From: Myxococcales bacterium
Lineage (GTDB): Bacteria > Myxococcota_A > Polyangia > Polyangiales > DASUME01
NCBI GenBank assembly: GCA_047601445.1
Contig: JASGJH010000001.1
Location: 4,960,001-5,024,000 of the forward strand
Reading direction: 5' to 3'
Length of the DNA: 64,000 nt
How positions within the stretch are numbered: position 1 is the first letter of the stretch; each line of letters starts with the position of its first letter. The notes under the pieces are model-generated. The model was given only the letters and a program-made list of their open reading frames with translations. It did not search any database and was not told where the DNA came from. The position numbers and the translations under genes are program-made. This document shows positions 22,130-46,666 of this stretch, one piece after another.

Positions 22130-22254
22130 TCGCCGCTCTGACGATCGGACCGAGTGAGAGCTCCAGCGTCGTCGCACGTTTTAGATAGGCCCCTGGGGGC
22201 GTCCCTGATTCCGGCGCACGCCAGCATCGCGCCTTTCCGCCGCATCGCGGATAG

Positions 22255-24303: not shown

Positions 24304-24570
24304 TCACGCTCCCTTGAACTGCGGGTGATTCACCACATAGGTGGTGATCTTGCGGAGCGAGTCGAAGTTCTCGCGCGTGAGGCTCTTGCGATCGATCTTG
24401 AGCTTGTAGTTCTCCTCGAGGAAGAGCGTGAGGTTCACGAAGCCCAGGCTATCGAGCACGCCGTTCTCGAGCAGCGACAGATCGTCGCTCTTGATCAGCG
24501 TCTCCGCGTCCCCGAAGTGATACTTGTCGTCGAGCCAGTCGATCACCGCACGTCGAACCTTGTCAGTCAT
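24304..24570 (-). CDS. Stand-alone acyl carrier protein (DltC-like)
   Basis: 88 aa, GVLDSLG phosphopantetheine site, ENFDSL. Confidence 0.9.
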   Translation of the reverse strand: MTDKVRRAVIDWLDDKYHFGDAETLIKSDDLSLLENGVLDSLGFVNLTLFLEENYKLKIDRKSLTRENFDSLRKITTYVVNHPQFKGA

Positions 24571-24597
24571 CGCAACACTCCGCAGGCAAGACCCAGC

Positions 24598-26070: not shown

Positions 26071-27227
26071 GGCAAGGCACTCGCGGAGCCGGGGGAGCCG
26101 GCAGAGCTGATGTTGGCGGAACCGGCGGCGCCGGTGGAGCTGGTGTTGGCAGAAGGGGCGGAGCCGGGGGAGCTCATGGAGCCGGCTGAACCCAGCGTCG
26201 CGGGGGCCGGCGTCCCGAGGAACTTGAGCGGGCCCTCGAGGGCCCAACGGCTGATCTTCACGTCGCCCTCGTGGATGAGGTGATCGAGATCGGGCCGGAA
26301 GTCCGCATCGACCAGGGGACCGTCGGTCTGGAAGTCGAGCACCTTGGCGCCGAAGGGCGCCGCGCGCTTCTCGAGGTAGGCCTTGAAACGGTCGGTGACG
26401 GCCAGGGTCTCCGCGTTCTGCGCCTTGGGAATCACGGGCCAGATCACGAAGGTGACCTGGACGTTGCGCGCCTGGGCGAACTCCATCATCCGGTCGAGCG
26501 CGGGCTCCTGTTCACGCACGATGCACTTGGGGTGCGTCATGTCGCCCTCTTTGATCATGTCGATCCAGCCGACCAACGTGGCGTCTGCCACGGCTTGCTT
26601 GTCGGCTTCGCTCTTGGGGCTGAAGCGCTCGCGCACGTCGCGGAAGATGCGGAACACGCCGCGGTCGCGCACCAGCGCGGAGCCCGTGGTGAGCTCGTTC
26701 CAGCGCTGGTCTACGTAGTTGGCGTTGAAGGGTGTGGAGCCATTGACCGCGAAGTCGGCCACGTAGTCGCCGAGGTCCCAGGCGCGCGCGGGGAGGTTGG
26801 GATAGAGCTCGTCGTTGCCGCAGATGTCCCAGTAGTTGGTGACCACCACCATGTGCTTGAGCTTGGGTCGAACCAACGCGCCCTGAGCGTTCTTCTCGTC
26901 GATCATCGGCTGCAGTCGGTGCGTGAGCAGCCAGGTGTAAGCCAGGAAGCGTCCACCCTCGATGGGCACCACCGAGAGGTCGAGCGGACGGGCGGCCTCT
27001 TTGTACATGCCCGCGAGCGGGATGAAGGAGCGCACGTAGCTCGAGCCGAGCACCAGTACATCGGGGTTGGCGTCGTGGTAGTCGTCGATGGATTCTGCGG
27101 TCTCGTATTCGGCGGCCGGGATGCGCGCGATGCGCCCGAGGGCGACGTCCGCCAGCGCCACGAAAGCGACGGCGGAGAGCGCGACCACCAAAAGAGATTT
27201 GACAGAGCCGCTCGCCATGAAAACCAT
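26067..27227 (-). CDS. Membrane-anchored SGNH-like protein (DltD/AlgJ-like)
   Basis: N-terminal TM, VLVLGSS nucleophile block, DLDHL near the C-terminus; stop overlaps the MBOAT start (alternative start 27218). Confidence 0.7.
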   Translation of the reverse strand: MVFMASGSVKSLLVVALSAVAFVALADVALGRIARIPAAEYETAESIDDYHDANPDVLVLGSSYVRSFIPLAGMYKEAARPLDLSVVPIEGGRFLAYTWLLTHRLQPMIDEKNAQGALVRPKLKHMVVVTNYWDICGNDELYPNLPARAWDLGDYVADFAVNGSTPFNANYVDQRWNELTTGSALVRDRGVFRIFRDVRERFSPKSEADKQAVADATLVGWIDMIKEGDMTHPKCIVREQEPALDRMMEFAQARNVQVTFVIWPVIPKAQNAETLAVTDRFKAYLEKRAAPFGAKVLDFQTDGPLVDADFRPDLDHLIHEGDVKISRWALEGPLKFLGTPAPATLGSAGSMSSPGSAPSANTSSTGAAGSANISSAGSPGSASALP

Positions 27228-27238
27228 TCTCCCGGCGC

Positions 27239-28204
27239 ATGGAAGCTAAAGACGACGCCGACGACCACAGTGTTTGGGCAGCGTTCGCCGCCTCGGCCAT
27301 CGACCCCAAGGTCGATGCGTTCAACCGGATGACCGCCCAAGCGCTCAGTCAGGTCGCGCCACTATACACGAAATCCATCGCCGTAGCTCGCCAGGAACGC
27401 GCCGATTGGACGCGGATTTCCGCGGTATCGGACGCATTTTGGCTCGATGTTCCGGAGGCCCGCAGCGCGCTCCGTGTGAGGGTGTTGCGCGCGAACTCGG
27501 CCAAGGCCGTGTACCTCCACGTGCATGGCGGAGGTTGGGTGCTCGGTGGAGCAGATCACCAAGACGGCCTGCTCGACGAGCTGCGCGTCCGGGCCGGTGT
27601 CAGCGTGGTGTCGGTGGAGTACCGGCTGGCACCTGAGCACCCGTTTCCCGCGGCGCTGGACGACGTCGAAGACGCGCTGCGCTGGGTATTGCAGGATGGC
27701 GCACAGAGTTTTGGCACTCGTCTCGTTATCGTGGGCGGCGAATCGGCCGGCGCGAACTTGGTTGTTTCGGCTCTGACCCGCCTGCGCGGACACCCGGCGT
27801 TCTCGGGCGTGGTGGCGGCCTGTCTTCACTACGGCACCTTCGATCTGATGGGGACCCCGAGTCTGTGGACGGCCGCGCCCGGCACGCCCTTCCTCGATCC
27901 CGCTCTGAGCAAATGGTTTCGTGAGCACTACGCGCATCCGGACCGGCACCGTGACCCGGAAGTCTCACCCATGTACGCGGATCTTACTGGCCTTCCCCCC
28001 GCTCAGTTTCTGATCGGTACGGTGGACGTGGTCCGCGACGATACCTTGTTCATGTGGGCCCGCTGGCGCGCCGCGGGCAATCGCGCGGAACTCGTGGCCT
28101 TGCCGGGCGGCCTGCACGGTCTCCTGGAAATGCGAACACCCCTCACGAAGCTCGGCCGCGAACGCGTGGTGAGCTTCATGCGACGCGCGGTCGCCGGCGA
28201 GTGA
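27239..28204 (+). CDS. HSL-family (abhydrolase_3) esterase
   Basis: HGGGW, YRLAPEHPFPA, GESAG, HG near the C-terminus; start uncertain (alternative 27329). Confidence 0.9.
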   Translation: MEAKDDADDHSVWAAFAASAIDPKVDAFNRMTAQALSQVAPLYTKSIAVARQERADWTRISAVSDAFWLDVPEARSALRVRVLRANSAKAVYLHVHGGGWVLGGADHQDGLLDELRVRAGVSVVSVEYRLAPEHPFPAALDDVEDALRWVLQDGAQSFGTRLVIVGGESAGANLVVSALTRLRGHPAFSGVVAACLHYGTFDLMGTPSLWTAAPGTPFLDPALSKWFREHYAHPDRHRDPEVSPMYADLTGLPPAQFLIGTVDVVRDDTLFMWARWRAAGNRAELVALPGGLHGLLEMRTPLTKLGRERVVSFMRRAVAGE

Positions 28205-28260
28205 ACGGGGCGCGCTCCCATGCGTGCCACTTTGCCGCTGCGGAAGCTCCGAAAGCTCCG

Positions 28261-28321
28261 TCGTACGCGTGCCCGTGCCCGTACGCGAAAAACGAGAGAT
28301 CGGGCACGGGCACGCGTACGA
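28261..28321. repeat. Perfect 21-bp inverted repeat (REP-like)
   Basis: TCGTACGCGTGCCCGTGCCCG-N19-CGGGCACGGGCACGCGTACGA. Confidence 0.9.
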
Positions 28322-28355
28322 TCAGAAGGTACCGCTAGCCTAGGGGCAGCGACCC

Positions 28356-29384
28356 CTAGTGCGCGGGCTCGGGCGTCTCGCGTCCGAGCAGCTTCTTGAT
28401 GGTGCGCTTGAGGGCCGCGGCGTTGTTGCGCAGCTTGCGCTCCTGGAAGTGATTCTCACCAAAGCGATCACCCAGGAACGACTTGAGCTTTCCGTCGGCC
28501 AAGAGGAACGCGTGCAGGAGCTTCTTGCGCGTTTCGCTCGGGTAGTCGTGCAGCACTTCCTTGGCCACGCCTTCCCAGTGGGCGAGGTTGGCGAAGGTGG
28601 ACGAGACCGCGATGGAGATGGAGACCATGCGCGTGGCGTGCCACCAACCTTCGGGCACGTACACGGCTTCGCCGGGCTCCTGCACGAAGCGGATGGGCGT
28701 GGCCTTCTTGAACAGCGGGAAACGCTCGAAGTCCGGGTTTTCCAGGTTCGGGATGCGCGAGAGGCGACCGTCAGCGTAGAGATAGGGCGTGTCGACTGGG
28801 TCGAACATCCAGAAGCCCTTCTTGCCGTAGACCTGGCACAGCAGCACGGGGCAGGCGCTCGGGTCGTAGTGCAGGTCCGCGTAACCCTGGATGAACGCGC
28901 CGTGCACGCCGGCGTAGGCCCCCTGCTCGTCCGCCACGCGGCGCTCGAGGCGCGTGCCGGGTCCGCCGATGAAGAGCTCCGGTTCCGAGGCGCGGTTCAT
29001 GTGGTGGTCGACGCCCCAGTCGGGGTAGTAGCCGCGCAACCAGTTGGGCAACGCGTACTGCACGAAGGGCTGCAGGTCTTCACCGAGCTCCGGGGCGAAC
29101 TCGCGGATCACGCACTCGCGCAGGTAGGGCGCGGGCTTGTCGGGCGTGGCGGCTTCGACGGACTTGATGTAGTCGCCCATCTTCATGGACTTGCCACCGA
29201 GCGTCACGGTGCGGTGGCCGTGCTCGCTACGGAAGAACTCGGGCGACCACTTGCCGAGCGCCTTCCACTCCGGGAAGGCGTTGCGGATCACCACGGGGCG
29301 CTGGGCTTTGGCGTACTCGTTGATGAAGTCCGTATAGGAAAGCCGATCTCGTACGTCGATCTTGCCGGCAAGCACTTCCGTCAT
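28356..29384 (-). CDS. JmjC/cupin-8 Fe(II)/2OG-dependent oxygenase
   Basis: PVVIR..WKALGKWS, LHYD, QVYGKK, PGEAVYVPEGWWH. Confidence 0.88.
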   Translation of the reverse strand: MTEVLAGKIDVRDRLSYTDFINEYAKAQRPVVIRNAFPEWKALGKWSPEFFRSEHGHRTVTLGGKSMKMGDYIKSVEAATPDKPAPYLRECVIREFAPELGEDLQPFVQYALPNWLRGYYPDWGVDHHMNRASEPELFIGGPGTRLERRVADEQGAYAGVHGAFIQGYADLHYDPSACPVLLCQVYGKKGFWMFDPVDTPYLYADGRLSRIPNLENPDFERFPLFKKATPIRFVQEPGEAVYVPEGWWHATRMVSISIAVSSTFANLAHWEGVAKEVLHDYPSETRKKLLHAFLLADGKLKSFLGDRFGENHFQERKLRNNAAALKRTIKKLLGRETPEPAH

Positions 29385-29478
29385 GACTGTCCGCTCCTCG
29401 AAATCCGAAGCTCGCTGTGCTCCGTGAAAAACTGCCGCAGAAGATAGCTCGCGGCCGTGAACCACGAAAGCTGGTTGC

Positions 29479-29563
29479 CTTCGTGCGCGAAGCGAACCTC
29501 GCGGTGGGGTGGGCCCCGGCACGGCTTGGCCGCGACGGGCGGGAGGTCGCGTGACCTCCCCGA
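29479..29563. repeat. Dispersed intergenic repeat ending in GGGAGGTC-GCGT-GACCTCCC hairpin
   Basis: 35-bp segment matches 63312-63346 (2 mismatches); hairpin identical to 47708-47727. Confidence 0.8.
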
Positions 29564-29566
29564 AAA

Positions 29567-30292
29567 TCAGGTGCCGGCGCGACGGAAGTAGGCGTGGTTG
29601 AATTCACCGGCGTAGAGCACGGAAATCTGCTCCGGCTTGTCCTTGATGAAGCGGTCGGCTCCGACGCGAACGCCAGGGTTCAGGTTCTCTGCATCGGGCG
29701 TCTCCGGGTGCCAGTAGTCGATGAACGAGCAGATGGCGCCCGGAGCCATGCGCGGGTAGAGGTGTGTGAGTACGGTCTCGATGGTCTTGGCGTGCTCTTC
29801 GGGGTCGCCGCCAAAGCCGCAATCGATGTGTGCGAAGGCGACGCGCTCCGGGAATTCCTGGGGAATCGTCTTGGCGAAGTCGCCCTGGTGAATCTGGGGC
29901 ACGGGCAGCGAACGCTCACGGAAGTTCTGCTCGAGGCGCGCGCGGGGATTGGGTTCGCTCCAGTTGGGTACGAAGCTGTCGTAGACGTGCATCGTGCGGG
30001 GAGCCTTGGCCTGGCCCTCGCCCTGCAGGATCTTGGTGATCAAGACGGCCGTCTGACCCGTGAACGTGCCGACTTCGATGAAGTCGCCCGGCACGTCGAA
30101 GGCCAGGAGCTGACTCACCATGTGATAGAGATTGATGCGCTGCTCGACGCAGGTCATGTAGCCGGTCACACCGGACGCGCGGACGTACATGCCGCGCCCC
30201 AGAGCCTTGAGCGCGCGGTTGACGAGCTTGACCCGGCGGCTTCCGCCATCGAAGGTCCAATCGAAATCACGTGTGATGAATAGGTTGTGCAT
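29567..30292 (-). CDS. TylF/MycF-like O-methyltransferase
   Basis: VPGDFIEVGTFTG, YDSF, GDFAKTIP, FAHIDC. Confidence 0.85.
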   Translation of the reverse strand: MHNLFITRDFDWTFDGGSRRVKLVNRALKALGRGMYVRASGVTGYMTCVEQRINLYHMVSQLLAFDVPGDFIEVGTFTGQTAVLITKILQGEGQAKAPRTMHVYDSFVPNWSEPNPRARLEQNFRERSLPVPQIHQGDFAKTIPQEFPERVAFAHIDCGFGGDPEEHAKTIETVLTHLYPRMAPGAICSFIDYWHPETPDAENLNPGVRVGADRFIKDKPEQISVLYAGEFNHAYFRRAGT

Positions 30293-30303
30293 GACTCTCG
30301 GAG

Positions 30304-33300
30304 CTACTCGGCTTCCACCAGGGGGAGTTGTTGTTCGAGGCGGACTCCGGCGAAGAAGCCGCCCTTGGCGTCCGACTCTTTTTCCAGGGAGCGCAGGGCG
30401 CGATCGAGCGAGGAGCGCACGCGCTGGGCGAGCGCGCGCACGTGGGGCTCGTCGAGCAGCGAAGCGTGATTGCCCGGCACCTCGATGACCTGGAGGGCGC
30501 CCTGGATGACTCCACCCCAACCGTTGTGCTCGTCGCGCATGTACTCGAAGTCACCGGCCGCACGGTTGGTGCGCACGCGGAACAGCACGGCGTCGCCAGG
30601 ATAGTTCGGCGGCGCGTAGCCCTGGATGGCGCGCGACCAGGCAGCTTCCACGCGTCCGCCGTCGAGGGAGCGCTCCCAGAGTCGGACCGCCACCGCTGGC
30701 GCATGGCGCTCGAGGAATTCCTTGCTGCGCTCCTCGACGCGGCGGCGTCCGAGCATCGTCACGTAGCGCGGACCCAGCTCCTGCAGGAGCGAGAAGTGCT
30801 CGGCCACGCGCTCGGGCCAGTCGAGCCCCTTGGTGGCGGGGTTCCAGGCGTCGAGGAAGAACAGCGGCGCCACCTTGCCCCCACCCTGCTGCAGCTTGAG
30901 GGCCATGTGGATGATGAGGGCGCCGCCCGCCGAGAAACCGGCCAAGAGGTAGGGTCCTCGCGGGCAAACCTTGCGCACCTCGGCCACGTACTCATCGACC
31001 ATGGCGTCGATGCTCTCGTGGGGCGCCATGATGCCGTCCACACCGCGCGACTGCAGTCCGTAGACGGGTTGATCGGGTCCGAGCGATATCGCCAAGTGAC
31101 GCAGGTTCATCACGTTGCCGCCACTGCCGCCCACGCAGAACAAGGGCGGGCGATGTCCGGCCGGCTGCATGGCCACCAGGCTCGACCAGGTGTACTCGCG
31201 CGGAGGCGGCGGCACGCTGTGGCCGTTGTTCGACTCCACGCGGGTCTCGACCTCGATGAGCTTCGCGAACTCGCGCACCGTGGGGGCTTTGATGAGCAGG
31301 GCCAGCGGGACCGGAATGCCGTAGGCAGCCTTGATCTTGGCGCTGACGCGCACCGCCGAGAGCGAGCTGCCGCCGAGATCGAAGAAGTTGTCCGTGGCCC
31401 CCACGCGGTCGAGGTTGAGCGCCTGGGCCCAGATCTTGGCGATGGCGCGCTCGATGCCCGCGTCGGGCTCGACGAAGTCGCGGCGGATCTCGCTGCGAGA
31501 AAGCACGTTGACCCCTACGTGCAGGGGCTCCGGAAGCTGCCCTACGACCGACTGCGCCGTGGACGAAGCCAGGTCGTCGAGCACGATGCGCGCGACCTCC
31601 TGGGCCGGCACGCCGCGGCGGATTTGGGCGGCCAGCGCGCGCGCGTTGCGGTCGGCGGCGGTACCCTCCTGCTCGATGGAGCGCGCCAGGGTCGCGTACA
31701 TGCCCTGATCCGAGACCAGGCCCAAGTCGAAGACCTGGGCCATCCCGTCCACGTGACGCGCGTTGGCGTCGGCGAACTCGGCTGCCGCGATGCTGGCGGA
31801 GAGGCCGGCGCGGGGCGAGAACCGCGCGGCGTTGCCGAAGCCCACCAGGAAGTCGAGCTCGTAGCGGATCACCTCACGCAACACGCGCCAGCCGTAGACC
31901 TCCGCGGCCAACGCATCATGGGCCTCACTGACGGTGCCGGTGGCGAGCAGCCACTCATCGAGCGTACCGGCGGCGTGGAACACGCCGTTGAGGGTGCCGA
32001 AGCGGCGCGAGATTTGAGTCGCCGCCGACTGCATCGACTCCAGGTGGCAGACGTCGGCAGACAGGGCCAGCACCTCGGCGCCTGCGGCCTCGAGGCGCTG
32101 GATCTGCCGGATGCGGGCGCTTACGGGGTCATGCTCGTCGTGATCTGCCAACCAGTCCGCGAAGTAGTCGCGGTCGGGGATGGGCGTGCGGCCGATCAAC
32201 ACCAGGCGCGGCTTGATGCGGCGCGTGATCTCCTCGGCCAGTGCCCTGCCCACGCCGCCGAAGCCGCCGACGATGAGATAGGTGCCGCCCGGGCGCAGGC
32301 CGCGCTTGTTGTCGGAAGGAATGGCCGGTGAGGGCAGCAACGTACGCTCGTAGAGCTGACGCCCGCGCACCGCATAGAGGCCGCGCCGCGATCCGCTGAT
32401 CTCGGCGAACAGGCGGTCGAGCAGGCGGTCGTGCCAGCGCTTGGTGCCGAAGGGCAACAGCAGCGCGCGGCGTGCGCCGACCGGGATGTCCACGTCGAAA
32501 GCGATGGTGCTGACGGTGGGTTCCTCGAACGGCAGCGCGGCCAGCGGGCCGTACATCAAGGCCTTCTCGGGCGTGGCCACGGCCTCACCACCCACGCTCA
32601 AGCAGCCGTTGGTCACGGCGGCGATGCGCATGGCGGGCTTCTTGTCGAGCTCCGCGAGTCCCTGCGCCAGACCGACCAGGGCCACGTAACCGCGCTCCAG
32701 GTTGTGGTGGAAGCGCGCGCTCTCCGAGCGGAACGGCTCGAAGGAAGTGACGGTCCAGAAGTAGAGCAGGACGTCGGGCAGCTGATCCTGGGCCGCGAGC
32801 TCGCCGATGAGCTCACGGAAGCCCTCCGCGCCGCGCTCGCAATCGATGAGGTAGTTGCCGTCGTTGTCGCGAGCCAGCGCCGGGCCAACGCCCATGCGCA
32901 CCACGGTGACCGCGCAACCTGCGTCGTCGAGGCGCGCCAGTGCGCGCTCGCTGAAGCCGCTCTCTTCCGCGAACACCAGGTAACGTAGGTTGGGATTGAG
33001 CTCGACCTTGGGGCTGGCGACGCTCTTGGTGAAGACGCTGATCAAGCGCGGCAGCGCGCCCTGATTGGTCACCGGCACGCGGCCCACGCTGAGCTCGGCA
33101 CCGGGCTCGGGCGGGTCAATCCAGAACGCGCGGTGCTCGAACGGATAGGTGGGCAGACGCAGGAGCTGGCGGCCCTCGGTCTCGAACAGCGACGTGTCGA
33201 GTGTGGAGCCCGCCAGGAAGGTCTGGGCACGCGCGGCCAGCATGGTGGACGGGATCATGCTGGAGCGAGAAGAGCCCGGGAACGCCTCGAGCGCTTCGAG

Positions 33301-34845
33301 GGCTTCGTCTTCCGTGCCCACCACGAAGGCGGCGCGCACGGGAAGCTCGCGACGACCCAGGCGCAAGGTATGCGCGATGTCCGCGAGGGTCTCGTGGGGA
33401 TGCGCGCGCATGTGGGCCGCCAAACGGCGGCAGGACTGCACGAGCGCCTCCGAGGTGCGCGCACTGAGCACGAGGAGTTCGCCGTCCTCCTGCACCGGAG
33501 CGCGGAAGATGGACGGTGCTTCCTCGAGCACCAGGTGCACGTTGGTGCCTCCGACCGCAAGGCAGTTGACCAGGGCACGTCGCGGCCCGTCTTCGGAGGC
33601 CCAGTGTTCAGCGCGCGTGAGGACGCGGAAGGGTGAGGTCTCGAGATCCAGCATCGGATGCGGGACCCGGAAATTGAGCAGCGGCGGCAGCGTCTTCGTG
33701 TGCAGCGCCAGGCAGGCCTTGACCAGCGAGACCAGGCCCGAAGCGTGATCGGTGTGGCCGAGGTTCGGCTTGTTGGCGCCGAGCACGCAGAAGCCGATGT
33801 CGGAAGTCTGCGTCTGGAACGCATTGCGCAGCGCGTTGACCTCGATGGAGTCGCCGAAGGGCGTGCCCGTGCCGTGAGCTTCGACGTAGCCGATGCTGCG
33901 CGGATCGATGCCAGCGACCGCCATGGCCTCTTCGATAGCCTGCGAAGGTCCGTCGACGGACGGCGCGGCGTACCCGACCTTGCGGTGTCCGTCGTTGTTC
34001 ACGGCTGTACCGCGAATCACGGCGTAGATCTGGTGACCGGCGGCCACGGCGTCCTCGAGCCGCGCCAACGCGACCACGGCCACGGCCGCCGAGGGCAAGG
34101 TGCCCGCCGCTCGCGCGTCGAAGGTACGGCAGACTCCGTCGGGGGAATCGAGCCCGCCTTCTTCGTAGAGGTAGCCCGCGTCCTGCGGCACCCGCAACGA
34201 GGCGGCCGCCGCGACGGCGATGCGACACTCACGCCCCAGCAAGCTCTGACACGCGCTGTGCACGGCCAACGCACCGCTGGCGCAGGCCGCCTGCACGCCG
34301 ACGCAGGGCCCGCGCAGATCGAGCGCATAGGCCAGGCGCGAGGTCATGAAGTCTCGGTCGTTCCCGAGCCGGAACAGGTTCTGGAGACCGGTCTCCTCCA
34401 CCAACTCACGGTTGGGAAGGATGTTGTTGAGCATGTACTCGCTGGCCGAGGTGCCCACGAAGAGCCCGATGGGCCCCGGCGGACGCGCTGGGTCGATGGC
34501 GGCGTCTTCGAGCGCGGTCCACGTGCACTCGCACAGGTGGCGCAGCTGGGGATCCATCAACGCGGCTTCGCGCGGTGTGAAGCCGAACAGCTCGGGGTCG
34601 AAGTTGGCGAGCCCCTCGATGCGCCCGCCGCGGCGGATGTAGCGCGGGTGCTCGCGCATGCCTTCGGGCACGCGGGCGCGCTTGAGGTCCTCGTCGCTGA
34701 GGTCGTCGATCAGGCTCAGGTTGTCGCGCAGCTTGTTCCACAGCTGCATCGCATCGCCGGCCCCGGGCGCACGCAGCCCGATGCCGATGACTGCTACGGC
34801 CTGCTCGGGCAACTCTGCGTTGGGTGGCGACGACGAGTCGGTCAT
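30304..34845 (-). CDS. Type I PKS termination module KS-(no AT)-KR(degenerate)-ACP-TE
   Basis: KS AACASG/EAHGTGT/NLGH; KR GGFGGVG and HAAG; ACP FFDLGGSSL; TE GFSAG and PGNH. Confidence 0.92.
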   Translation of the reverse strand: MTDSSSPPNAELPEQAVAVIGIGLRAPGAGDAMQLWNKLRDNLSLIDDLSDEDLKRARVPEGMREHPRYIRRGGRIEGLANFDPELFGFTPREAALMDPQLRHLCECTWTALEDAAIDPARPPGPIGLFVGTSASEYMLNNILPNRELVEETGLQNLFRLGNDRDFMTSRLAYALDLRGPCVGVQAACASGALAVHSACQSLLGRECRIAVAAAASLRVPQDAGYLYEEGGLDSPDGVCRTFDARAAGTLPSAAVAVVALARLEDAVAAGHQIYAVIRGTAVNNDGHRKVGYAAPSVDGPSQAIEEAMAVAGIDPRSIGYVEAHGTGTPFGDSIEVNALRNAFQTQTSDIGFCVLGANKPNLGHTDHASGLVSLVKACLALHTKTLPPLLNFRVPHPMLDLETSPFRVLTRAEHWASEDGPRRALVNCLAVGGTNVHLVLEEAPSIFRAPVQEDGELLVLSARTSEALVQSCRRLAAHMRAHPHETLADIAHTLRLGRRELPVRAAFVVGTEDEALEALEAFPGSSRSSMIPSTMLAARAQTFLAGSTLDTSLFETEGRQLLRLPTYPFEHRAFWIDPPEPGAELSVGRVPVTNQGALPRLISVFTKSVASPKVELNPNLRYLVFAEESGFSERALARLDDAGCAVTVVRMGVGPALARDNDGNYLIDCERGAEGFRELIGELAAQDQLPDVLLYFWTVTSFEPFRSESARFHHNLERGYVALVGLAQGLAELDKKPAMRIAAVTNGCLSVGGEAVATPEKALMYGPLAALPFEEPTVSTIAFDVDIPVGARRALLLPFGTKRWHDRLLDRLFAEISGSRRGLYAVRGRQLYERTLLPSPAIPSDNKRGLRPGGTYLIVGGFGGVGRALAEEITRRIKPRLVLIGRTPIPDRDYFADWLADHDEHDPVSARIRQIQRLEAAGAEVLALSADVCHLESMQSAATQISRRFGTLNGVFHAAGTLDEWLLATGTVSEAHDALAAEVYGWRVLREVIRYELDFLVGFGNAARFSPRAGLSASIAAAEFADANARHVDGMAQVFDLGLVSDQGMYATLARSIEQEGTAADRNARALAAQIRRGVPAQEVARIVLDDLASSTAQSVVGQLPEPLHVGVNVLSRSEIRRDFVEPDAGIERAIAKIWAQALNLDRVGATDNFFDLGGSSLSAVRVSAKIKAAYGIPVPLALLIKAPTVREFAKLIEVETRVESNNGHSVPPPPREYTWSSLVAMQPAGHRPPLFCVGGSGGNVMNLRHLAISLGPDQPVYGLQSRGVDGIMAPHESIDAMVDEYVAEVRKVCPRGPYLLAGFSAGGALIIHMALKLQQGGGKVAPLFFLDAWNPATKGLDWPERVAEHFSLLQELGPRYVTMLGRRRVEERSKEFLERHAPAVAVRLWERSLDGGRVEAAWSRAIQGYAPPNYPGDAVLFRVRTNRAAGDFEYMRDEHNGWGGVIQGALQVIEVPGNHASLLDEPHVRALAQRVRSSLDRALRSLEKESDAKGGFFAGVRLEQQLPLVEAE

Positions 34846-34847
34846 GG

Positions 34848-38111
<3,264 letters not shown>

Positions 38112-38118
38112 TGGCTGT

Positions 38119-40299
38119 TCAACTCGTAACTAGCTGCTGATACTTGCCTGGTCGTCCGGGGTCGGGCACGAACCAGGCCGGATTGCCGTGCTGATCGCGC
38201 CCGAGCCTCGCACCAGGCACCGGGGGCGCGCTGGCGAGCGCGGGCTTGGCTGGCTCCTCGGCTGGCACGAAGAACCCGCCGCGCTGCACTTCGTGGATGG
38301 CCTCCTTGAAGGCGTCGATCACGAAGGCGACGTCCTCATCGCTATGGGCCGTGGTCAAGAAGACCGGGCGGCCATCGTAGATGTGCACGCCGCGCATGCG
38401 CATGTGGGCGAAGAGGAGATCGCCGAAGGTCTGCTCGATGGAGTAGTGCCCCTTCATCATCGAGGTGAAGTGGCCGAACTCGAGCGGCACCCCCGCCTGT
38501 TTGGCGAAGGCGTTCATGCTGGTGGCGAGGTGCGTGGCGCGCGCGTTCACCGTGCGCTGCAGCTCCGGACCTTCCTTCTTGAGGTACTCGAGCGAGGCCT
38601 TGGCCGCGGCCAACGTGAGCGGATGGCGCACGAAGGTACCCGCGAAGTAGGTGACGCCCACTTCGGGCACCGAGCTGTCGCCGAACTGCCAGTAGCCGCC
38701 GTCGAGGGCGTCCATGTACTCGCGCTTGCCGGCGATCACGCCGATGGGCATGCCGCCACCCACGACCTTGCCGTAGGTCGCGATGTCGGCCTGCACGTCG
38801 AAGATCTCCTGGGCGCCGCGCTGAGCCGAGCGGAAGCCGCAGATCACTTCGTCGACGATGAAGACGATGTTCTCGTCGGTGCACAGCTTGCGTAGCGCGT
38901 GCAGGAACTCCTTGGGCTGAAGCTCCGGACGTCGGCTCTGTACGGGTTCCACGATGGCGCAGGCGATGTCGTCGGCCTTCTCGCGGATAATCTCGAGCGA
39001 CCTGGGGTCGCCGTAGTCCAGCACCAGCACGTTGCCGGTGTGCGAGCTGGGAATGCCCGCCGCCGCCGGCACGCTACGGCCCGAGGGCGTGCCGCGGACG
39101 ATGACCTCGTCGTTGATGCCGTGGTAGTCGCCGGTGAACATCACCATCAGGTTCTTGCCGGTGACCGTGCGCGCCATGCGGATGGCACCGAGCACGGCTT
39201 CCGAGCCCGTGTTGCAGAAGGCAGCGCGCTCATGGCCCACCATCTCGCAGAACATCTGGGCGACCTCGCCGGCCAGGTGGTGCTGCGGGCCGATCTCGAA
39301 GCCGTTCCGGACCTGACGCTCGAGCGCCTCCACCACGAAGGGCGCGGCGTGCCCGAAGAAACACGAGCCGTAGCCGCACAGCATGTCGATGAACTCGTTG
39401 CCGTCGATGTCCCAGATGCGCGAGCCCTGGGAGCGGGCGGCCACGATGGAGTAGATCATCTCCTTGAGGCGCGGGTGGAAGCCGCTGACGGTGCGCGGAT
39501 CGGCCAGGTGGGCGCGATGCTGCTGCGTGTACGCCTTGGAGGACTTGGTCTTCTCGTTGTAGCGCTGGATCAGCTGGTCGATGTGCTTCTGCTGACGCGG
39601 CGTGAGCTCGGTGTTGTCCTTGCGCTCGATGCGCACCTGGGCGCCGAAGGGCTTGGCGGCGGGGGCCGGTGCGTCGGCCGCGGGGGCCGGGGTCGCAGCC
39701 GCAGCGGGGGTGCCGTTGGCAGCAGGTGCGCTGGTGACGACCGGTGAGGCTGGGGTCGCACTCGGCTGCGCGACGGCCTCGGATTGCGGCGCCGCGACCG
39801 CGCTGGCCACGGCCAGGGGCTGACCCGAAAGCATGGCCAACTGACGCGCCATGATCTGCAGCTGCTGGGAGAACACGCGCTCGAGCGCGCTGGCCCCAGC
39901 GGGAGCCACGCCCACGGGCGCAGACTCGAAGGCCGCCAGCGGCAAGGCCACGGGCACTGCGGGCTTCGCGACGGCAACCGCGACGGCTGCCACGGGAGCG
40001 GGAGCGGGGGCCGCGGGTTGGGCGGCGGCGCCGTTGAACTGATCCTTGGGCAGCACCTGGTCGAGGTGCTGGGCCAGCGCGAGCATGGACGGGAACTCGT
40101 CGGTCAGCTGGCGCATACGCAGCTTCTGCTTGAACTCCTTGTTCAAGCGCGTGGTGAGCTGGGTCAGAAAGAGGGAGTCGAAGCCCAGGTCGAAGAAGCC
40201 CGTGGCGGCCGCGGTGTCGGGGAGATCACTCCCCGAGAGTTCGTTGGTAATGAGGCGGATGCGATCGGTGAGGGTGGGGACCCGGAGATCCTGAGTCAC
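38119..40299 (-). CDS. ACP + class III PLP aminotransferase didomain (PKS-associated AMT)
   Basis: GFDSL ACP; NTGSEAV, VEPVQSR, DEVICGFR, TYGKVVGGG; AAGGAG RBS before GTG. Confidence 0.93.
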   Translation of the reverse strand: MTQDLRVPTLTDRIRLITNELSGSDLPDTAAATGFFDLGFDSLFLTQLTTRLNKEFKQKLRMRQLTDEFPSMLALAQHLDQVLPKDQFNGAAAQPAAPAPAPVAAVAVAVAKPAVPVALPLAAFESAPVGVAPAGASALERVFSQQLQIMARQLAMLSGQPLAVASAVAAPQSEAVAQPSATPASPVVTSAPAANGTPAAAATPAPAADAPAPAAKPFGAQVRIERKDNTELTPRQQKHIDQLIQRYNEKTKSSKAYTQQHRAHLADPRTVSGFHPRLKEMIYSIVAARSQGSRIWDIDGNEFIDMLCGYGSCFFGHAAPFVVEALERQVRNGFEIGPQHHLAGEVAQMFCEMVGHERAAFCNTGSEAVLGAIRMARTVTGKNLMVMFTGDYHGINDEVIVRGTPSGRSVPAAAGIPSSHTGNVLVLDYGDPRSLEIIREKADDIACAIVEPVQSRRPELQPKEFLHALRKLCTDENIVFIVDEVICGFRSAQRGAQEIFDVQADIATYGKVVGGGMPIGVIAGKREYMDALDGGYWQFGDSSVPEVGVTYFAGTFVRHPLTLAAAKASLEYLKKEGPELQRTVNARATHLATSMNAFAKQAGVPLEFGHFTSMMKGHYSIEQTFGDLLFAHMRMRGVHIYDGRPVFLTTAHSDEDVAFVIDAFKEAIHEVQRGGFFVPAEEPAKPALASAPPVPGARLGRDQHGNPAWFVPDPGRPGKYQQLVTS

Positions 40300-40729
40300 A
40301 TGAACTCCTTCGAGGGCACAGGTCGAAGCGGGCGGGTGCGTCCGCGAGCTTCACTACATGAGAGCCGATACACGAACGGGCACACGTGCTCGTGCATGGC
40401 CGAGCAAGCCCGGGTGGGCGCGCCAGCAGCATCGAGATGATAGCAGGCCACACCCAGCACTCGGAGCATCAAAAGTACGCGCGGACGGCCGCAATCTGCC
40501 CTGACGATTTGACCTTGTCGAGGGCACCGCGCCGTGGCGTTCTGTCGCGATTACCCGTTCGGGTAGGTGTCACGGCTGGGCGCGTAAGACAGCGAGATGC
40601 CGATGGTGTCCAGGATTCGGTGCACGCGCTCGAGCCGCGCGCGGCGGGATTGGCTGAGCGCGCCCCGAGTCGCTGACGATCACGCTTCGCGTCCAACAAC
40701 TGTACTCGGATCGCGCGCTGCTGCGTGCC

Positions 40730-43700
40730 ATGGTTACGGCCATGCCTGAAGCTGCTTCGGACCCCAGTTTGCTCGCCCTCGACACGGCCCAGGAGCGCTG
40801 GTGGTTGCTCGCTCAACTCGTACATCAGAGCCCAGCTCTTTACATTGCGCATGCGGTGCGCAGGCCGAGCGGACTCCCGCTCTCGGAGCTCACGACGTCC
40901 GTCGTTAATTGGGCGGAGGGCATCCCCGCCCTCAAGGCACTGGTGGAGGGCAGCGGCGAGCGTGCCCGGCGTCGGGTGGGTCCACAGGCCCATGTGAGTG
41001 TACGCACGATTGGCAGTCCCCTCGCGTTGGCTACTGCCGCAGCGCACGAGGTTCGCGCCGAAGCCAAGCGGGGGATCTCGCTCGAGCGTGGCCCGCTGCT
41101 TCGCGTGACGCAGATCGTGGCGCCCGACGGAGTCGCGCTCGTGTTCGTCAGCCACCGTGTGGTGGCGAGCCGCGAATTGCTGGCGAGTTGGTGTCGTCCG
41201 CTCGAAGGACAAGGTGCTCACGCCCGCGCCGCCGGCAACGACGCGACGCGCGCGCTTTCAGTGTCACTGGAGCGAGAGCGCGCTTTCCTCGCGAGTCCAG
41301 AGGCCAAGGCCCATGGTCAATCCGTCGCAACGCGCCTGCGCGGCCACGAGTTGTCGCTCGACCTGCCCACCGATCGCGTGCGCGCCGAAGAGCGGGACCT
41401 GGTCAGCAGTGAGCTGGTCCAGCCTCTGTCCGCGGCGTGCCGTAGCGCCCTCGGTCAGCTCGCCGCCCAGACCGGCGCGAGCTCCCAAGACGTCCTGAGC
41501 GCGGCTCTCGCGCTCATGCTGGCGCGCTATGCGCGGCAGAGAGACCTGGTGCTCGGAGAAGTGCTGCCGAGCGACCCGAGTGACCCGGGCGCGCGCGAGC
41601 CGAGCGCCATCTTGCGCCTGAACCTCGAGGGCAGACCCAGTGTGAGCCAGTTGGTGGAGCGCGTGGCGCGCGCGCGTGTAGAGGCCCGCGCGGATGCCCC
41701 CCTGCCATTCGAAGCCCTGCTCGGACAGCTCGCCCTCAAGCGCGACCCGAGCCGAAGCCCCATCTTCCAGGTGGAGTTTCGCCACCGAACACTCGCGCAA
41801 GAGGCCCTCATCGTGGACGCCGGAGGTCTCGAGCTCGACCTGAGCTTCGACTTCCTGGAGAGCCCCGGCGCGCTCACCTGCGTGGTGCGCTTCGCCACCC
41901 AGCTGTTCGACGCCGCCAGTGTGGCCCGCATGGTCGCGCATCTGGGCGAGCTCCTGTGCCGGATGGCTGCGGCCCCTGACCGGGAGGCGTTCCGCCTTCA
42001 GATGGTCACCGATCAGGAGCGCAGCGCGCTGCTCGGACCGGCCACCAACCTACCCGCCTACAGCGCAAGTCCGGCCATTCACCGCTGGGTGGAGGCGCGC
42101 GCCAAGGAGCGCCCCGAGGCACTGGCCATCACCTGCAACGGCGAATCCCTCAGCTACGGCGCCCTGAACCGCCGCGCCAACCAGCTGGCCCGTGCCCTGG
42201 TGGCCCGCGGCGTGGGTCGCGACCAGCGCGTGGTCGTGTGCATGGAGCGCTCGCTGGACCTGGTGGTGGCCCTGTTGGCGGTGCTCAAGGCGGGCGGCGC
42301 CTACGTGCCCATCGAGCCCACCAACCCCAAGGACCGCATCGACTTCGTGCTCGAGGACGCCCGCGCCATCCTGGCCCTCACCCAGCGTCCGCTGGCGGAC
42401 AAGGTGAGCGGCTCGGACGTGTTGTTCGTGGACGATCTGGGCGCCTTCGCGCAGCACGCCGAGGGGGACCTCGAGGGGCCCGACGTGCTCGAGTCGCTCG
42501 CCTACGTCATCTACACCTCGGGCTCCACGGGCAAGCCGAAGGGCTGCCTCATCGAGCACCGCCACGTGGTTCGGCTATTCCAGGCCTGCGACGCGTGGTT
42601 CCATTTCGGCCCCGACGACGTCTTCAGTGTCTTCCACTCGTTCGCCTTCGACTTCTCGGTGTTCGAGCTGTGGGGAGCCCTGATGTTCGGCGGACGCGCG
42701 GTGGTGGTGCCGCAGTCCGTAACACGCGCCCCGGACGACTTTCTTTCGCTGTGCGTACGCGAGAAGGTCAGCGTGCTGTGCCAGACGCCCTCGGCGTTCC
42801 GCCAGTTCGTGGCCAACGAAGCCAAGCTGGCCCCCGGCGCCCTGGCACTGCGGCTCGTGGTGTTCGGTGGCGAGGCGCTGGAGCTCGAGAGCCTGCGCCC
42901 GTGGTTCCAGAAGCACGGCGACAGCAAGCCCGAGCTCGTCAACATGTACGGCATCACCGAGACCACGGTGCATGTCACGTATCGCCCCATCCGCTTCGCC
43001 GACCTCGCCTTGGGTGCCTCCAGCGTGATCGGCGTGCCCATCCCCGACCTCTACGTGCACCTGCTCGACGAGGAGCAGAACCTGGTGCCGGTCGGTGTGC
43101 CGGGAGAGATCCATGTGGGCGGTGCGGGCGTCGCGCGCGGCTACTTGGAGCGCCCGGAGCTCACTGCGGCGCGCTTCGTGGACGACCCCTTCGTACCTGG
43201 GGCACGGCTCTATCGCTCGGGTGACCTGGCGCGCCTGCTGCCCCACGGCGAGCTCGACTACCTCGGACGCATCGACTTCCAGGTGAAGATCCGCGGCTTT
43301 CGCATCGAGACGGGAGAGATCGAGGCCGCCCTGCGACGCTCGGGCCTGGTGCGGGATGTCGCGGTGCTCACGCACAAGCAGGCCGGGGACGCGTTCCTGG
43401 CAGCCTACGTGGTGACCGACGCCACGCCCAACGACCTGCGCAGTGCGCTGCGACGCGAGCTCCCCGAATACATGGTGCCATCCGTGTTCGTGGTGATCCC
43501 GGAGCTGCCCATGAACGTGAACGGCAAGGTCGACCGCGCCGCGCTGCCGGAACCGCGCGAGGTCACGCAGACGGTGCAAGTCCGGCCGAGCTCGGAGCTC
43601 GAGCGCATCATCGCCAGCGTGTGGTGCGAGGTGCTGGGTCGCGACGAGGTCTCGGTCGACCAGAGCTTCTTCGATCTTGGCGGCAATTCCGGGCGTGTGG

Positions 43701-46666
43701 TGGCGGTCGGCAAGCGGCTCAAGGAGCTCCACGGCATCGAGGTGCCCATCGCGCGCCTGTTCCAGCACACCAGCGTGCGCACGCTGGCTCAGCACCTGGG
43801 CAGCGTACCCAGCAAGCTGCGCCACGAGGCCGCCGCGGCGCGCCCCGCAGCGGGTGGCGAGCTCGAGCCCATCGCCATCGTGGGCATGGCCGGTCGCTTC
43901 CCTGGCGCTCCCGACGTCGAGAGCCTGTGGAAGAACCTCGAGCAAGGCCTGGAGTCGGTGACGCGCTTCGCGCTCAACGAGCTCGACCCGAGTGTGCCCG
44001 AGAGCGAGCGCAGCTCGCCTCAGTACGTGGCGGCCCGTCCCATGCTCGAAAGCGCCACTCTGTTCGACGCAGAGTTCTTCGGCATTTCACCCAGCGAGGC
44101 CGACGTCATCGACCCGCAGCAGCGCGTGATGCTCGAAGTGGCCTGGGAGGCGCTGGAGAGCGCCGGCTACGACCCCGCGCGCCCCAAGGGCAGCATCGGT
44201 GTGTACTGCGGCGAGTACAACGTGACCTATTACACCGAGAACGTCCTCACCCGGCCCGACGTGCTCGATCGCGTGGGTTCCTTCGTGGCCATGGTGGGCA
44301 ACGAGAAGGACTACATCGCGACCCGCATCGCGCACCGCCTCGACCTGCGTGGCCCCGCCATCAGCGTGCACACCGCCTGCTCCACCTCCCTGGTGGCCGT
44401 GGCCCAGGCCTTCTTCGCGCTGCGCACGCGCCAGTGCGACATGGCCCTGGCGGGTGGCGTCTCCATCGCCTTCCCGCAACGGCGTGGCCACGTCTACGAA
44501 GAAGGCGGCATGCTGTGCGCGGACGGGCACTGTCGTCCCTTCGACGCCAACGCCACCGGCACCATGTTCGGCGATGGAGCGGCCATGTTGGTGCTCAAGC
44601 GCCTGAGCGACGCGCAGGCCGACGGCGATCACATTCACGCCGTGATCCGCGGCGCCGCCACCAACAACGACGGCGCCCACAAGATGAGCTTCAGCGCGCC
44701 CACCGTAGAAGGGCAGGCCGAAGTCATCGCGCAGGCCCAGACGGTGGCAGGCGTGGACGCGGCCAGCATCGGCTATGTGGAAGCCCATGGGACCGCCACG
44801 CCGCTCGGCGACCCCATCGAGGTGGAGGCGCTCACGCAGGCTTTCCGCCGCAGCACCGACAAGCGCAACTTCTGCGGCATCGGCTCCGTCAAGAGCAACC
44901 TGGGCCATCTGACGGCAGCCTCTGGCGCCACCGGCCTGATCAAGGCCGCGCTCTCGCTCGAACACGAGCACATCCCAAAGAGCCTGCATTTCGAGCGTCC
45001 GAACCCGGGCATCGACTTCGCGAACAGCCCCTTCTACGTGATGGCAGAGCCCAAGGCCTGGCCGCGGGGCGCCGTCGCACGTCGCGCAGGCGTGAGCTCG
45101 TTCGGCGTGGGCGGCACCAACGCCCACGTGGTGATCGAGGAGGCGCCCGCCCGCGCGGAGAGTGGGTCCGCGCAGGAGCCGCAGCTCCTGGTGTTGTCCG
45201 CCCGCAGCGAGGCGGCCCTCGCGCGCATGGGCGAGCGGCTCGGCGCCTGGCTCGCCACCCATCCGCAGGCTTCGCTGTCGGACGTGGCGTTCACGCTGGC
45301 GCGCGGTCGGCGGCACTTCGAACGCCGGCGCGCGGTGGTGGTGCAGGACCCGGCGCAGGCGGCCCAAGAGCTCAGCGGCAAGCAGGCCGAGGCGCAGCTC
45401 TCCAGCAAGACTCCGCAGGTGGTGTTCGTGTTCCCGGGCCAGGGCGCGCAGCACGCCGGCATGGGTCGCGCCCTGTACCAGCGCTACCCAGCTTTCGCCG
45501 AGGCGCTCGATCGCTGCAACGCGCTGCTCGAGCCCATTTTGCAGGCCGATCTCAAGGCCCTCATGTTCGCACCCGACGACGACCCGGCCGCGCACGCCCT
45601 GTTGCGCGAGACGCGCATCACCCAACCGGCCCTGTTCGCCATCGGGTACGCGCTCGCCCAGCTCTGGAAGAGTCTGGGCGTGGAGCCTGCCTGCCTCATC
45701 GGCCACAGCGTGGGCGAGTTCGTGGCGGCCCACCTGGCCGGCGTGATGAGCCTCGACGACGCGCTGCGCATGGTGGCCGAGCGCGGACGCTTGCTGCAGT
45801 CGATGCCACGCGGATCCATGCTCGCGGTGCGTGCGCCCGCCGCGCGCGTGGAGGCCAGCCTCGATCCGACGCTCTCCATCGCTGCCATCAACGGACCGAA
45901 CCTGTGCGTGGTGGCGGGGCCCGAGAGAGCGGTCCATGCGCTGTCCCTCTTGCTCGACGCGCAGGGCGTGGCCAACTCGCACCTGCACACCTCCCACGCC
46001 TTCCACTCCGCCATGATGGATCCTGCGGTGCCCCAGTTCCTGGAGTTCGTGCGGAAGATCCCGCTCGCAGCGCCCAAGCTACCCATCTACTCCACGGTCA
46101 GCGGCGCACTGCTCACCGACAGCGAGGCCACGGACAGCATGTACTGGGCTCGCCATCTGCGCGCCACGGTGCGCTTCGCCGACGCCGTGCAAGCAGCCTA
46201 TGCCGAGCCCCATCGCGTCCTGCTCGAGGTGGGTCCGCGCAACGGAGCCACGCAACTGGCGCGTCAGGCCATCGTCGATCGCAAGACCCAGCACGCCGTG
46301 GCCACGCTCGACGGCAAGGTCGATCGCGCGGAGCTCTCGGCTCTGCTCGGCGCCGTGGGGCAGCTCTTCGAGCGCGGCGTGAGCGTAAACCTCACGGCCT
46401 TGCCCAGCGCCCAGGGCGCGCGGCGCGTGCCGCTCCCCACCTACCCCTTCGAGCGCAAGCTGCACTTCGTGGAGCCAGGCAAGGCCCTCGGCGTGCCCGC
46501 GCCGCAGGCCAGCGCGCCCAGCCGTGGCGTTCAGGCCGACGCCGCGCCCGTGGGCGACCCCTTCGCCATCCCGGCGACGGGCGAAGATCTGGTCACGGCC
46601 CAGCTGCGCTTGATGGAGATGCAACTGGCGATCCTGGCGAGCTCGAACCCGGGGGATGCGGAGTAG
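40730..46666 (+). CDS. Hybrid NRPS/PKS C(degenerate)-A-PCP-KS-AT
   Basis: C motif HRVVAS; A YTSGSTGKPKG and NMYGITETTVH; PCP LGGNS; KS TACSTS/HGTAT/GH; AT GHSVG and HAFH; ends shortly after LPTYPF. Confidence 0.95.
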   Translation: MVTAMPEAASDPSLLALDTAQERWWLLAQLVHQSPALYIAHAVRRPSGLPLSELTTSVVNWAEGIPALKALVEGSGERARRRVGPQAHVSVRTIGSPLALATAAAHEVRAEAKRGISLERGPLLRVTQIVAPDGVALVFVSHRVVASRELLASWCRPLEGQGAHARAAGNDATRALSVSLERERAFLASPEAKAHGQSVATRLRGHELSLDLPTDRVRAEERDLVSSELVQPLSAACRSALGQLAAQTGASSQDVLSAALALMLARYARQRDLVLGEVLPSDPSDPGAREPSAILRLNLEGRPSVSQLVERVARARVEARADAPLPFEALLGQLALKRDPSRSPIFQVEFRHRTLAQEALIVDAGGLELDLSFDFLESPGALTCVVRFATQLFDAASVARMVAHLGELLCRMAAAPDREAFRLQMVTDQERSALLGPATNLPAYSASPAIHRWVEARAKERPEALAITCNGESLSYGALNRRANQLARALVARGVGRDQRVVVCMERSLDLVVALLAVLKAGGAYVPIEPTNPKDRIDFVLEDARAILALTQRPLADKVSGSDVLFVDDLGAFAQHAEGDLEGPDVLESLAYVIYTSGSTGKPKGCLIEHRHVVRLFQACDAWFHFGPDDVFSVFHSFAFDFSVFELWGALMFGGRAVVVPQSVTRAPDDFLSLCVREKVSVLCQTPSAFRQFVANEAKLAPGALALRLVVFGGEALELESLRPWFQKHGDSKPELVNMYGITETTVHVTYRPIRFADLALGASSVIGVPIPDLYVHLLDEEQNLVPVGVPGEIHVGGAGVARGYLERPELTAARFVDDPFVPGARLYRSGDLARLLPHGELDYLGRIDFQVKIRGFRIETGEIEAALRRSGLVRDVAVLTHKQAGDAFLAAYVVTDATPNDLRSALRRELPEYMVPSVFVVIPELPMNVNGKVDRAALPEPREVTQTVQVRPSSELERIIASVWCEVLGRDEVSVDQSFFDLGGNSGRVVAVGKRLKELHGIEVPIARLFQHTSVRTLAQHLGSVPSKLRHEAAAARPAAGGELEPIAIVGMAGRFPGAPDVESLWKNLEQGLESVTRFALNELDPSVPESERSSPQYVAARPMLESATLFDAEFFGISPSEADVIDPQQRVMLEVAWEALESAGYDPARPKGSIGVYCGEYNVTYYTENVLTRPDVLDRVGSFVAMVGNEKDYIATRIAHRLDLRGPAISVHTACSTSLVAVAQAFFALRTRQCDMALAGGVSIAFPQRRGHVYEEGGMLCADGHCRPFDANATGTMFGDGAAMLVLKRLSDAQADGDHIHAVIRGAATNNDGAHKMSFSAPTVEGQAEVIAQAQTVAGVDAASIGYVEAHGTATPLGDPIEVEALTQAFRRSTDKRNFCGIGSVKSNLGHLTAASGATGLIKAALSLEHEHIPKSLHFERPNPGIDFANSPFYVMAEPKAWPRGAVARRAGVSSFGVGGTNAHVVIEEAPARAESGSAQEPQLLVLSARSEAALARMGERLGAWLATHPQASLSDVAFTLARGRRHFERRRAVVVQDPAQAAQELSGKQAEAQLSSKTPQVVFVFPGQGAQHAGMGRALYQRYPAFAEALDRCNALLEPILQADLKALMFAPDDDPAAHALLRETRITQPALFAIGYALAQLWKSLGVEPACLIGHSVGEFVAAHLAGVMSLDDALRMVAERGRLLQSMPRGSMLAVRAPAARVEASLDPTLSIAAINGPNLCVVAGPERAVHALSLLLDAQGVANSHLHTSHAFHSAMMDPAVPQFLEFVRKIPLAAPKLPIYSTVSGALLTDSEATDSMYWARHLRATVRFADAVQAAYAEPHRVLLEVGPRNGATQLARQAIVDRKTQHAVATLDGKVDRAELSALLGAVGQLFERGVSVNLTALPSAQGARRVPLPTYPFERKLHFVEPGKALGVPAPQASAPSRGVQADAAPVGDPFAIPATGEDLVTAQLRLMEMQLAILASSNPGDAE

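Follow-up and report, generated by a model that had tools for sequence, protein, structure and literature searches.

In the 64,000-nucleotide window analysed here, a polyketide synthase (PKS) module is divided between two genes, A and B, and each of the two proteins carries one copy of the same Gln/Leu/Met helix, which is probably a homotypic intramodular docking element clipping the protein of gene B onto the protein of gene A, likely in the form of an A2B2 four-helix bundle. Judged from sequence comparisons, this helix most likely works like a docking domain, outside any described class. This reading is favoured because fused modules exhibit at most one copy, located behind the ACP, as opposed to split modules where one copy ends the KS(-AT) protein and another lies behind the ACP, as well as because the helices recur in separate splits, in matching variants, and as isolated helices between flexible linkers. 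Physical binding, or tethering, between A and B would follow from this distribution. Several observations detailed below weigh on the other side, namely the loci G943, L142 and L081, the lack of a cognate signal in pairs of standard length, and the occurrence of fused proteins devoid of the helix.

Gene A (40730..46666, + strand) encodes a protein of 1978 residues with the Pfam-based organization C-A-PCP-KS-AT, followed by a post-AT linker and the terminal helix, and without ACP. In its KS-AT didomain (residues 1046-1866; 43865..46327, +; Pfam), the KS motifs TACS/HGTAT/NLGHL and the AT motifs GHSVG and HAFH are present. Downstream, the linker and ACP of fused relatives are replaced by an Ala/Pro-rich linker, which together with the post-AT LPTYPF motif spans 46433..46579 (+), and the stop occurs 76 residues past the start of this motif. 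The N-terminal C domain (40775-42034, +) lacks HHxxxDG, has a weak Pfam score and is probably catalytically dead. Gene B (38119..40299, - strand) encodes 726 residues arranged as ACP, linker, helix, linker and PLP aminotransferase (AMT), with the GFDSL motif in the ACP (40063..40260, -; Pfam) and the YGKV lysine 511 in the class III aminotransferase core (residues 283-602; 38494..39453, -; Pfam), the best fold matches being the mycosubtilin AMT 6KFM and the ACP-AMT fusion 6KFU. By homology, gene B would transaminate an ACP-bound beta-keto acyl chain. At its C-terminus (38119-38230, -), a conserved tail after the AMT, PPVPGARLGRD...PAWFVP..PGKY, for which three beta-strands are predicted, is common to most of the 120 listed homologues and without Pfam match; it may serve as a docking or structural element facing the C domain that follows.

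Genes A and B are divergent rather than in tandem. Directly downstream of gene B, gene C (34848..38111, -) encodes a C-A-PCP NRPS module, and beyond it gene D (30304..34845, -) encodes a terminal module KS-(no AT)-KR-ACP-TE without helix copy. In gene D, the KS linker is followed by the LPTYPF motif, the AT that would separate them being cleanly missing, with no GHSxG, and malonyl loading is needed in trans, possibly via the AT of gene A. Beyond gene D, the region 21200-30520 encodes a TylF-like O-methyltransferase, a JmjC/cupin protein, an alpha/beta hydrolase, an unannotated protein of 386 residues, a DltB-like MBOAT protein, a stand-alone carrier-like protein of 88 residues (24304-24570), an acetoacetate-CoA ligase and a desaturase, a gene set suggesting that the product may be moved across the membrane onto a surface acceptor.

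Both helix peptides are present where the sequence-only reading had placed them. The copy of gene A, GEDLVTAQLRLMEMQLAILASS, comprises 22 residues (46580..46645, +) and lies six residues before the stop, while the internal copy of gene B, LERVFSQQLQIMARQLAMLSGQ, occupies residues 139-160 (39820..39885, -), about 55 residues behind the ACP. The pattern QLxxMxxQLxxL, defined post hoc from these two copies, has only two matches in 16.8 million residues of six-frame ORFs from the 9.5 Mb genome, i.e. both window helices, for 0.07 expected. With its GC content of 66%, this genome probably belongs to a myxobacterium. Besides, a PSSM derived from the linker helices of 116 other proteins places the window helices in the top two positions of the whole genome, with scores of 56.4 and 28.8, ahead of a third-ranked score of 23.3. 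A chance origin of the pair is rejected by this pattern count and independent ranking, and a recent duplication within this genome is also rejected since the two copies are identical at only 35 of 66 nucleotides. As no other close match of this kind occurs in the genome besides gene B, and gene A is the only one of six strong KS-bearing ORFs to score for the helix, the two genes appear as natural partners.

Regarding structure, AlphaFold2 predicts an isolated helix at residues 138-157 of the gene B protein, between poorly ordered linkers of low confidence, and an isolated helix at positions 83-104 of the 110-residue tail of gene A (block pLDDT 82-93), again with poorly ordered linkers. Four of the seven heptad positions are conserved in both helix types, three hydrophobic and one Gln, a pattern partly built into the selection. 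In coiled coils, so wide a conserved face is consistent with the packing of more than two helices, and its breadth suggests a four-helix bundle rather than a two-stranded coil, which amends the coiled coil initially proposed. A complex prediction with two copies of each helix and alignments scored 0.06, the mark being 0.32, in a run whose controls did not fold either, and it is weighed on neither side. As for known families, nine tails retrieved no Pfam family at E 0.1, NCBIfam returned no match covering the helix, the PDB profile matches listed all end before the helix columns, and a PDB fold search with the gene A tail model gave no match. The PDB sequence match of gene B to the MycA ACP-AMT fusion 6KFU begins at residue 229 of B, so no solved chain matched the helix.

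In McyE-type modules, KS-AT-ACP-AMT are found in one polypeptide. Among the 120 listed homologues of B (883 passed the threshold), a loose helix motif occurs once in 117 and never twice. In the 54 classifiable fused modules, 13 further fused proteins being left unclassified, the helix was found before the ACP in none, after the ACP in 38, and was not detected in 16; 10 of these 16 have linkers of at most 67 residues, and several of the other six, including bacillomycin BamA, exhibit by eye degenerate Gln-rich stretches. The helix is thus common yet dispensable in fused modules. In Bacteroidota, four proteins with the organization A-(PCP)-KS-ACP-AMT (L033, L035, L043 and L044) have neither AT nor helix. 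As a negative control, 221 post-AT sites were considered in 119 other PKS proteins, obtained by a homologue search with the AT and tail region and dominated by multi-module PKSs; the helix was found at two of them, both at chain ends (P0194 and P0208), this search having also yielded two split proteins. None of the 213 internal post-AT sites of these ordinary PKSs had the helix, nor did the six other terminal sites of the control set, five of which belong to proteins labelled partial.

The occurrence of the second copy was further considered in a partner-blind survey, where genomes and plasmids were searched with B, short open frames were taken and the KS partner was sought only afterwards. 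Twelve stand-alone ACP-helix-AMT genes were recovered this way, and the KS or KS-AT partner ends in the helix for 11 of them, including three weaker cases, i.e. G132 (frameshifted, helix in pieces), G392 (ending at a contig edge) and G612 (degenerate). The helix-ended partner is encoded directly upstream in G196, G612, G1074, G1035, G1150, G1360 and G132, on another contig in G428, G392 and G806, and about 10 kb away in an Azospirillum plasmid, where it is an AT-less KS; the cross-contig pairing of these three, and the fact that G196, G132 and G392 belong to one genus, are further weak points. Partner genes are therefore not always neighbours, as in Azospirillum and, divergently, in the window. 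For the twelfth gene, G943, no helix-ended partner was found among five KS-AT matches. A thirteenth stand-alone ACP-AMT gene, G194, has no helix, and none of its nine KS/AT matches is helix-ended; being counted among the ACP-AMT genes and outside the 12 with a helix, it brings the genes retaining the helix to 12 of 13. At locus L081, where the module is broken between KS and AT, there is no helix on the KS. Four loci open at a contig end (G003, L051, L053 and L084) were left unclassified. The sequence-only reading had anticipated one copy in fused homologues and one per partner in split ones, with a C-terminal helix on the split KS(-AT) protein, and the surveys bear it out: a single copy or none when the module is fused, a copy on each partner when it is split, and the C-terminal helix in 11 of the 12 partner-blind cases.

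On the Azospirillum plasmid (NZ_CP032326.1, 342078-357282; L155 and L158), the region comprises ACP-helix-AMT, KS-helix, an NRPS, an arginine 2,3-aminomutase and a diiron oxygenase, and a free-standing AT is encoded elsewhere on the plasmid. In L194 (G806:C295), a single frame encodes a KS, a degenerate AT-like stretch, a helix of the long variant and then the start of a second AT.

Searches starting from the helix give a view of its spread. In metagenome DNA, a pattern combining the post-AT motif and the helix gave 44 matches, 37 of which lie outside a PKS post-AT frame and seven within, the latter corresponding to five distinct sequences. Four of these five stop 3-17 residues past the helix, and three of these four genes have an ACP-helix gene directly downstream; for the remaining one, L142 (KS-AT-helix), there is no ACP-helix gene within 8 kb downstream. 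The fifth sequence, L119, was discarded, since the pattern matched there by chance, within helix 1 of a fused ACP. At L134, the KS-AT-helix gene is followed by a gene encoding ACP-helix-C (L134:1374-3299), whose start overlaps the stop of the former, and no aminotransferase is present; an AMT-specific role of the helix is ruled out by this pair. As further illustrated by the KS-helix protein with a separate AT, the helix is independent of the aminotransferase, and the two-copy state accompanies KS(-AT) and ACP on separate chains, whatever comes after the ACP. In L115/L123, A-PCP-KS-AT-helix is followed by ACP-helix-AMT-TE. A profile of nine tails run against 1.84 billion representatives gave 115 matches, 69 of which show the post-AT motif, the helix and then the end of the chain (median tail of 4 residues); the other 46 comprise 10 terminal helices with unclear upstream region, five continuing proteins, 23 of ACP-helix types and eight others. 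These 69 tails, many of them fragments, were chosen by helix profile and considered without genomic context, and they document a spread and not a rule. Some chains lack an ACP after the AT: P0264 and P0279 are KS-AT-helix-C proteins with the helix internal, at the usual place of the ACP, and P0299 is KS-AT-helix followed by 443 unassigned residues. A plasmid search with the tail matched 245 records.

Fused and split forms have switched repeatedly. Placing the 13 split proteins on a KS-AT tree (74 rows) requires nine changes, at least seven of which are forced by well-supported branches, and monophyly of the split form is rejected (p-AU 1.35e-5); in an AMT tree of 73 rows, nine split proteins need seven changes, at least four of which are forced, with monophyly again rejected (p-AU 2.1e-4). 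A single origin of the split form is thereby rejected by both trees, which are quick LG+G4 trees with no mixture model, built before five later pairs joined and leaving out duplicates, frameshifted rows and most open rows. Both are unrooted and give repeated switching without its direction, i.e. fission or fusion. Three pairs (G1074, G1035 and G806) have three different long helices with a Gln spacing unlike the usual 7, and in each the variant is the same on both partners. Over 13 pairs, the similarity of cognate helices is above chance (permutation p 2e-4), which comes wholly from these three pairs; among the 10 pairs of standard length, partner helices resemble each other no more than mismatched combinations do (p 0.31), an initial set of eight pairs likewise showed no excess (p 0.55), and the window pair ranks sixth of 13. 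Such matching length variants indicate common origin, not contact. Split tails also read like a fused sister minus the ACP (P0307 vs. P0271), and it is because of this ACP-deleted look and of the partner-matched variants that fission by duplication is favoured. Of the earlier proposal that fission had duplicated a coiled-coil helix, the duplication is thus sustained by these two features, while the unrooted trees accommodate fission as well as fusion.

In the docking mechanism proposed, the two helices of a fused dimer, one from each chain, would pair with each other at a position lying between the dimeric KS and the domain downstream. Following a partial duplication, one copy would lose the ACP and all after the helix, and the other the KS-AT, leaving one helix per protein; since the helix would bind its own kind, A and B would stay associated after the split. 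If two helices came from the dimeric KS and two from the dimeric aminotransferase, an A2B2 bundle on a shared axis would be the simplest geometry. The linkers of about 50 residues flanking the helix would leave the ACP mobile, so that, about 55 flexible residues away, it could still reach the AT, the KS, the aminotransferase and the next C domain. From domain logic, protein A would charge its PCP with an amino acid and extend the latter with malonyl onto the ACP of B, which would transaminate the beta-keto group before the chain passes to C and D.

The main rival explanation, which we consider unlikely, is that each helix merely steadies its own dimer, A and B meeting by ordinary ACP-enzyme contacts and KS-AT retaining a copy since the dimeric aminotransferase was lost. 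In its favour, embedded type I PLP domains must be dimers (PMC3870968) and the KS dimer of a hybrid NRPS-PKS equilibrates with its monomer (PMC13691573), according to passages of these papers; the standard-length pairs without cognate signal also fit, as does the conservation of the helix in most fused modules, where docking is unneeded. On the contrary, 12 of 13 split ACP-AMT genes keep the helix though the AMT dimerises, when fused modules can drop it, a contrast which is statistically not strong, and the ACP-less P0264 and P0279 retain an internal helix; since three of the four heptad positions that are conserved are hydrophobic, a bundle would also suit the helix better than a two-stranded coil.

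Docking of each copy onto a folded domain of the partner, be it the ACP, KS-AT or downstream enzyme, seems still less probable. A broad hydrophobic face could be buried against a domain, DHD domains offer a precedent (described in part of PMC9113145), and all four AT-less fused proteins seen in Bacteroidota are also without helix. Yet the helix outlasts domain changes, with no AMT in L134, no AT in Azospirillum and no ACP in protein A, leaving the KS as the only folded partner always present, and the monomer model places the helix of gene B between low-confidence linkers. Least credible, and in our view very improbable, is that the terminal helix on KS-AT represents a functionless leftover of the splitting duplication. 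This would agree with split tails such as that of P0307, which resembles a fused sister from which the ACP has been excised, and with the degenerate copy of G612; nonetheless, the pattern is kept while the surrounding linker is unalignable, it is still recognisable in the diverged window copies, and it recurs in many separate lineages, with a median of 4 residues between the helix and the chain end.

Extending homotypic docking beyond the window, a portable, self-associating, Gln-cored helix could remain latent in fused modules, behind their ACP, and pre-adapt them to fission, one duplication sufficing to generate the homotypic A2B2 bundle. The KS(-AT) could then recruit any ACP-helix-X protein, X being an aminotransferase or a C domain, even from the internal position of KS-AT-helix-C, and helix length (Gln spacing of 7, 11 or 14/15) could act as a specificity code; we would give this broader model about an even chance. 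If docking holds true, a homotypic helix rejoining KS-AT and ACP inside a module, and present through many independent splits, would explain how split modules stay functional, scattered KS-AT and ACP-AMT genes could be paired by genome miners, and a natural 22-residue tag would be at hand for splitting at the AT/ACP boundary, with length variants possibly orthogonal.

As regards known systems, the docking domains covered in passages of PMC9113145 are heterotypic pairs at chain termini, lying mostly between modules in cis-AT systems; no class described there is homotypic, occurs internally or occupies an AT/ACP junction. Passages of PMC3870968, PMC12184294, PMC13691573 and bioRxiv 10.1101/2023.02.11.528132 bear no description of the helix, and none was found in the largely open-access literature searched. 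Like docking domains in general, the helices are paired short regions on subunits exchanging intermediates, in 11 of 12 partner-blind cases and in the window, but only the copy of A is C-terminal, that of B lying at residues 139-160 instead of at a terminus. Class 1 cis-AT docking domains (DEBS2/3, PikAIII/IV), as described in part of PMC9113145, similarly consist of short helices joining dimeric PKS subunits, and a 2+2 four-helix bundle is the geometry suggested here; they differ in being complementary C- and N-terminal elements of unlike sequence at intermodular ACP/KS junctions, whereas the window helix sits at the AT/ACP junction inside a module, with the same motif twice and one copy internal, behind the ACP. 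In class 2 cis-AT docking domains, terminal pairs assemble into eight-helix bundles according to the same passages (PMC9113145); these domains are likewise found at ACP/KS intermodular junctions, contrary to the window helix. Closer in size and place are the trans-AT double-helix pairs (VirA/VirFG, MlnD/E), of about 25 residues and located at split-module junctions; in the excerpts of PMC9113145, these bundles are formed by a terminal helix-turn-helix on each partner, and DHD domains bind the DH surface. In the window, by contrast, one continuous helix is predicted in each of the two AlphaFold2 models, the copy of B is non-terminal, and the hosts are mostly cis-AT.

Sequence searches in Pfam, NCBIfam and PDB matched the window helix to no known docking-domain family or structure. 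The post-AT dimerisation element of modular PKSs is a helical homodimerising insert. This element and the post-ACP motif (outlined in passages of PMC9113145) resemble the window helix as helical homodimerising inserts near AT or ACP, but the latter, for which these databases hold no match, is a single heptad helix that is doubled only in split modules. Finally, MycA/BamA-type modules share the order KS-(AT)-ACP-AMT-C, the AMT of B matches the mycosubtilin MycA AMT (6KFM/6KFU), and the linker of BamA has a degenerate Gln/Leu stretch where B has the helix. All parts of a MycA/McyE-type module, namely KS, ACP, class III PLP aminotransferase and then C, are present in the window with catalytic residues intact; while MycA/BamA-type modules are single chains, with KS to AMT in one polypeptide, these parts are spread over genes A, B and C, the KS and the AMT being encoded by two divergent genes.
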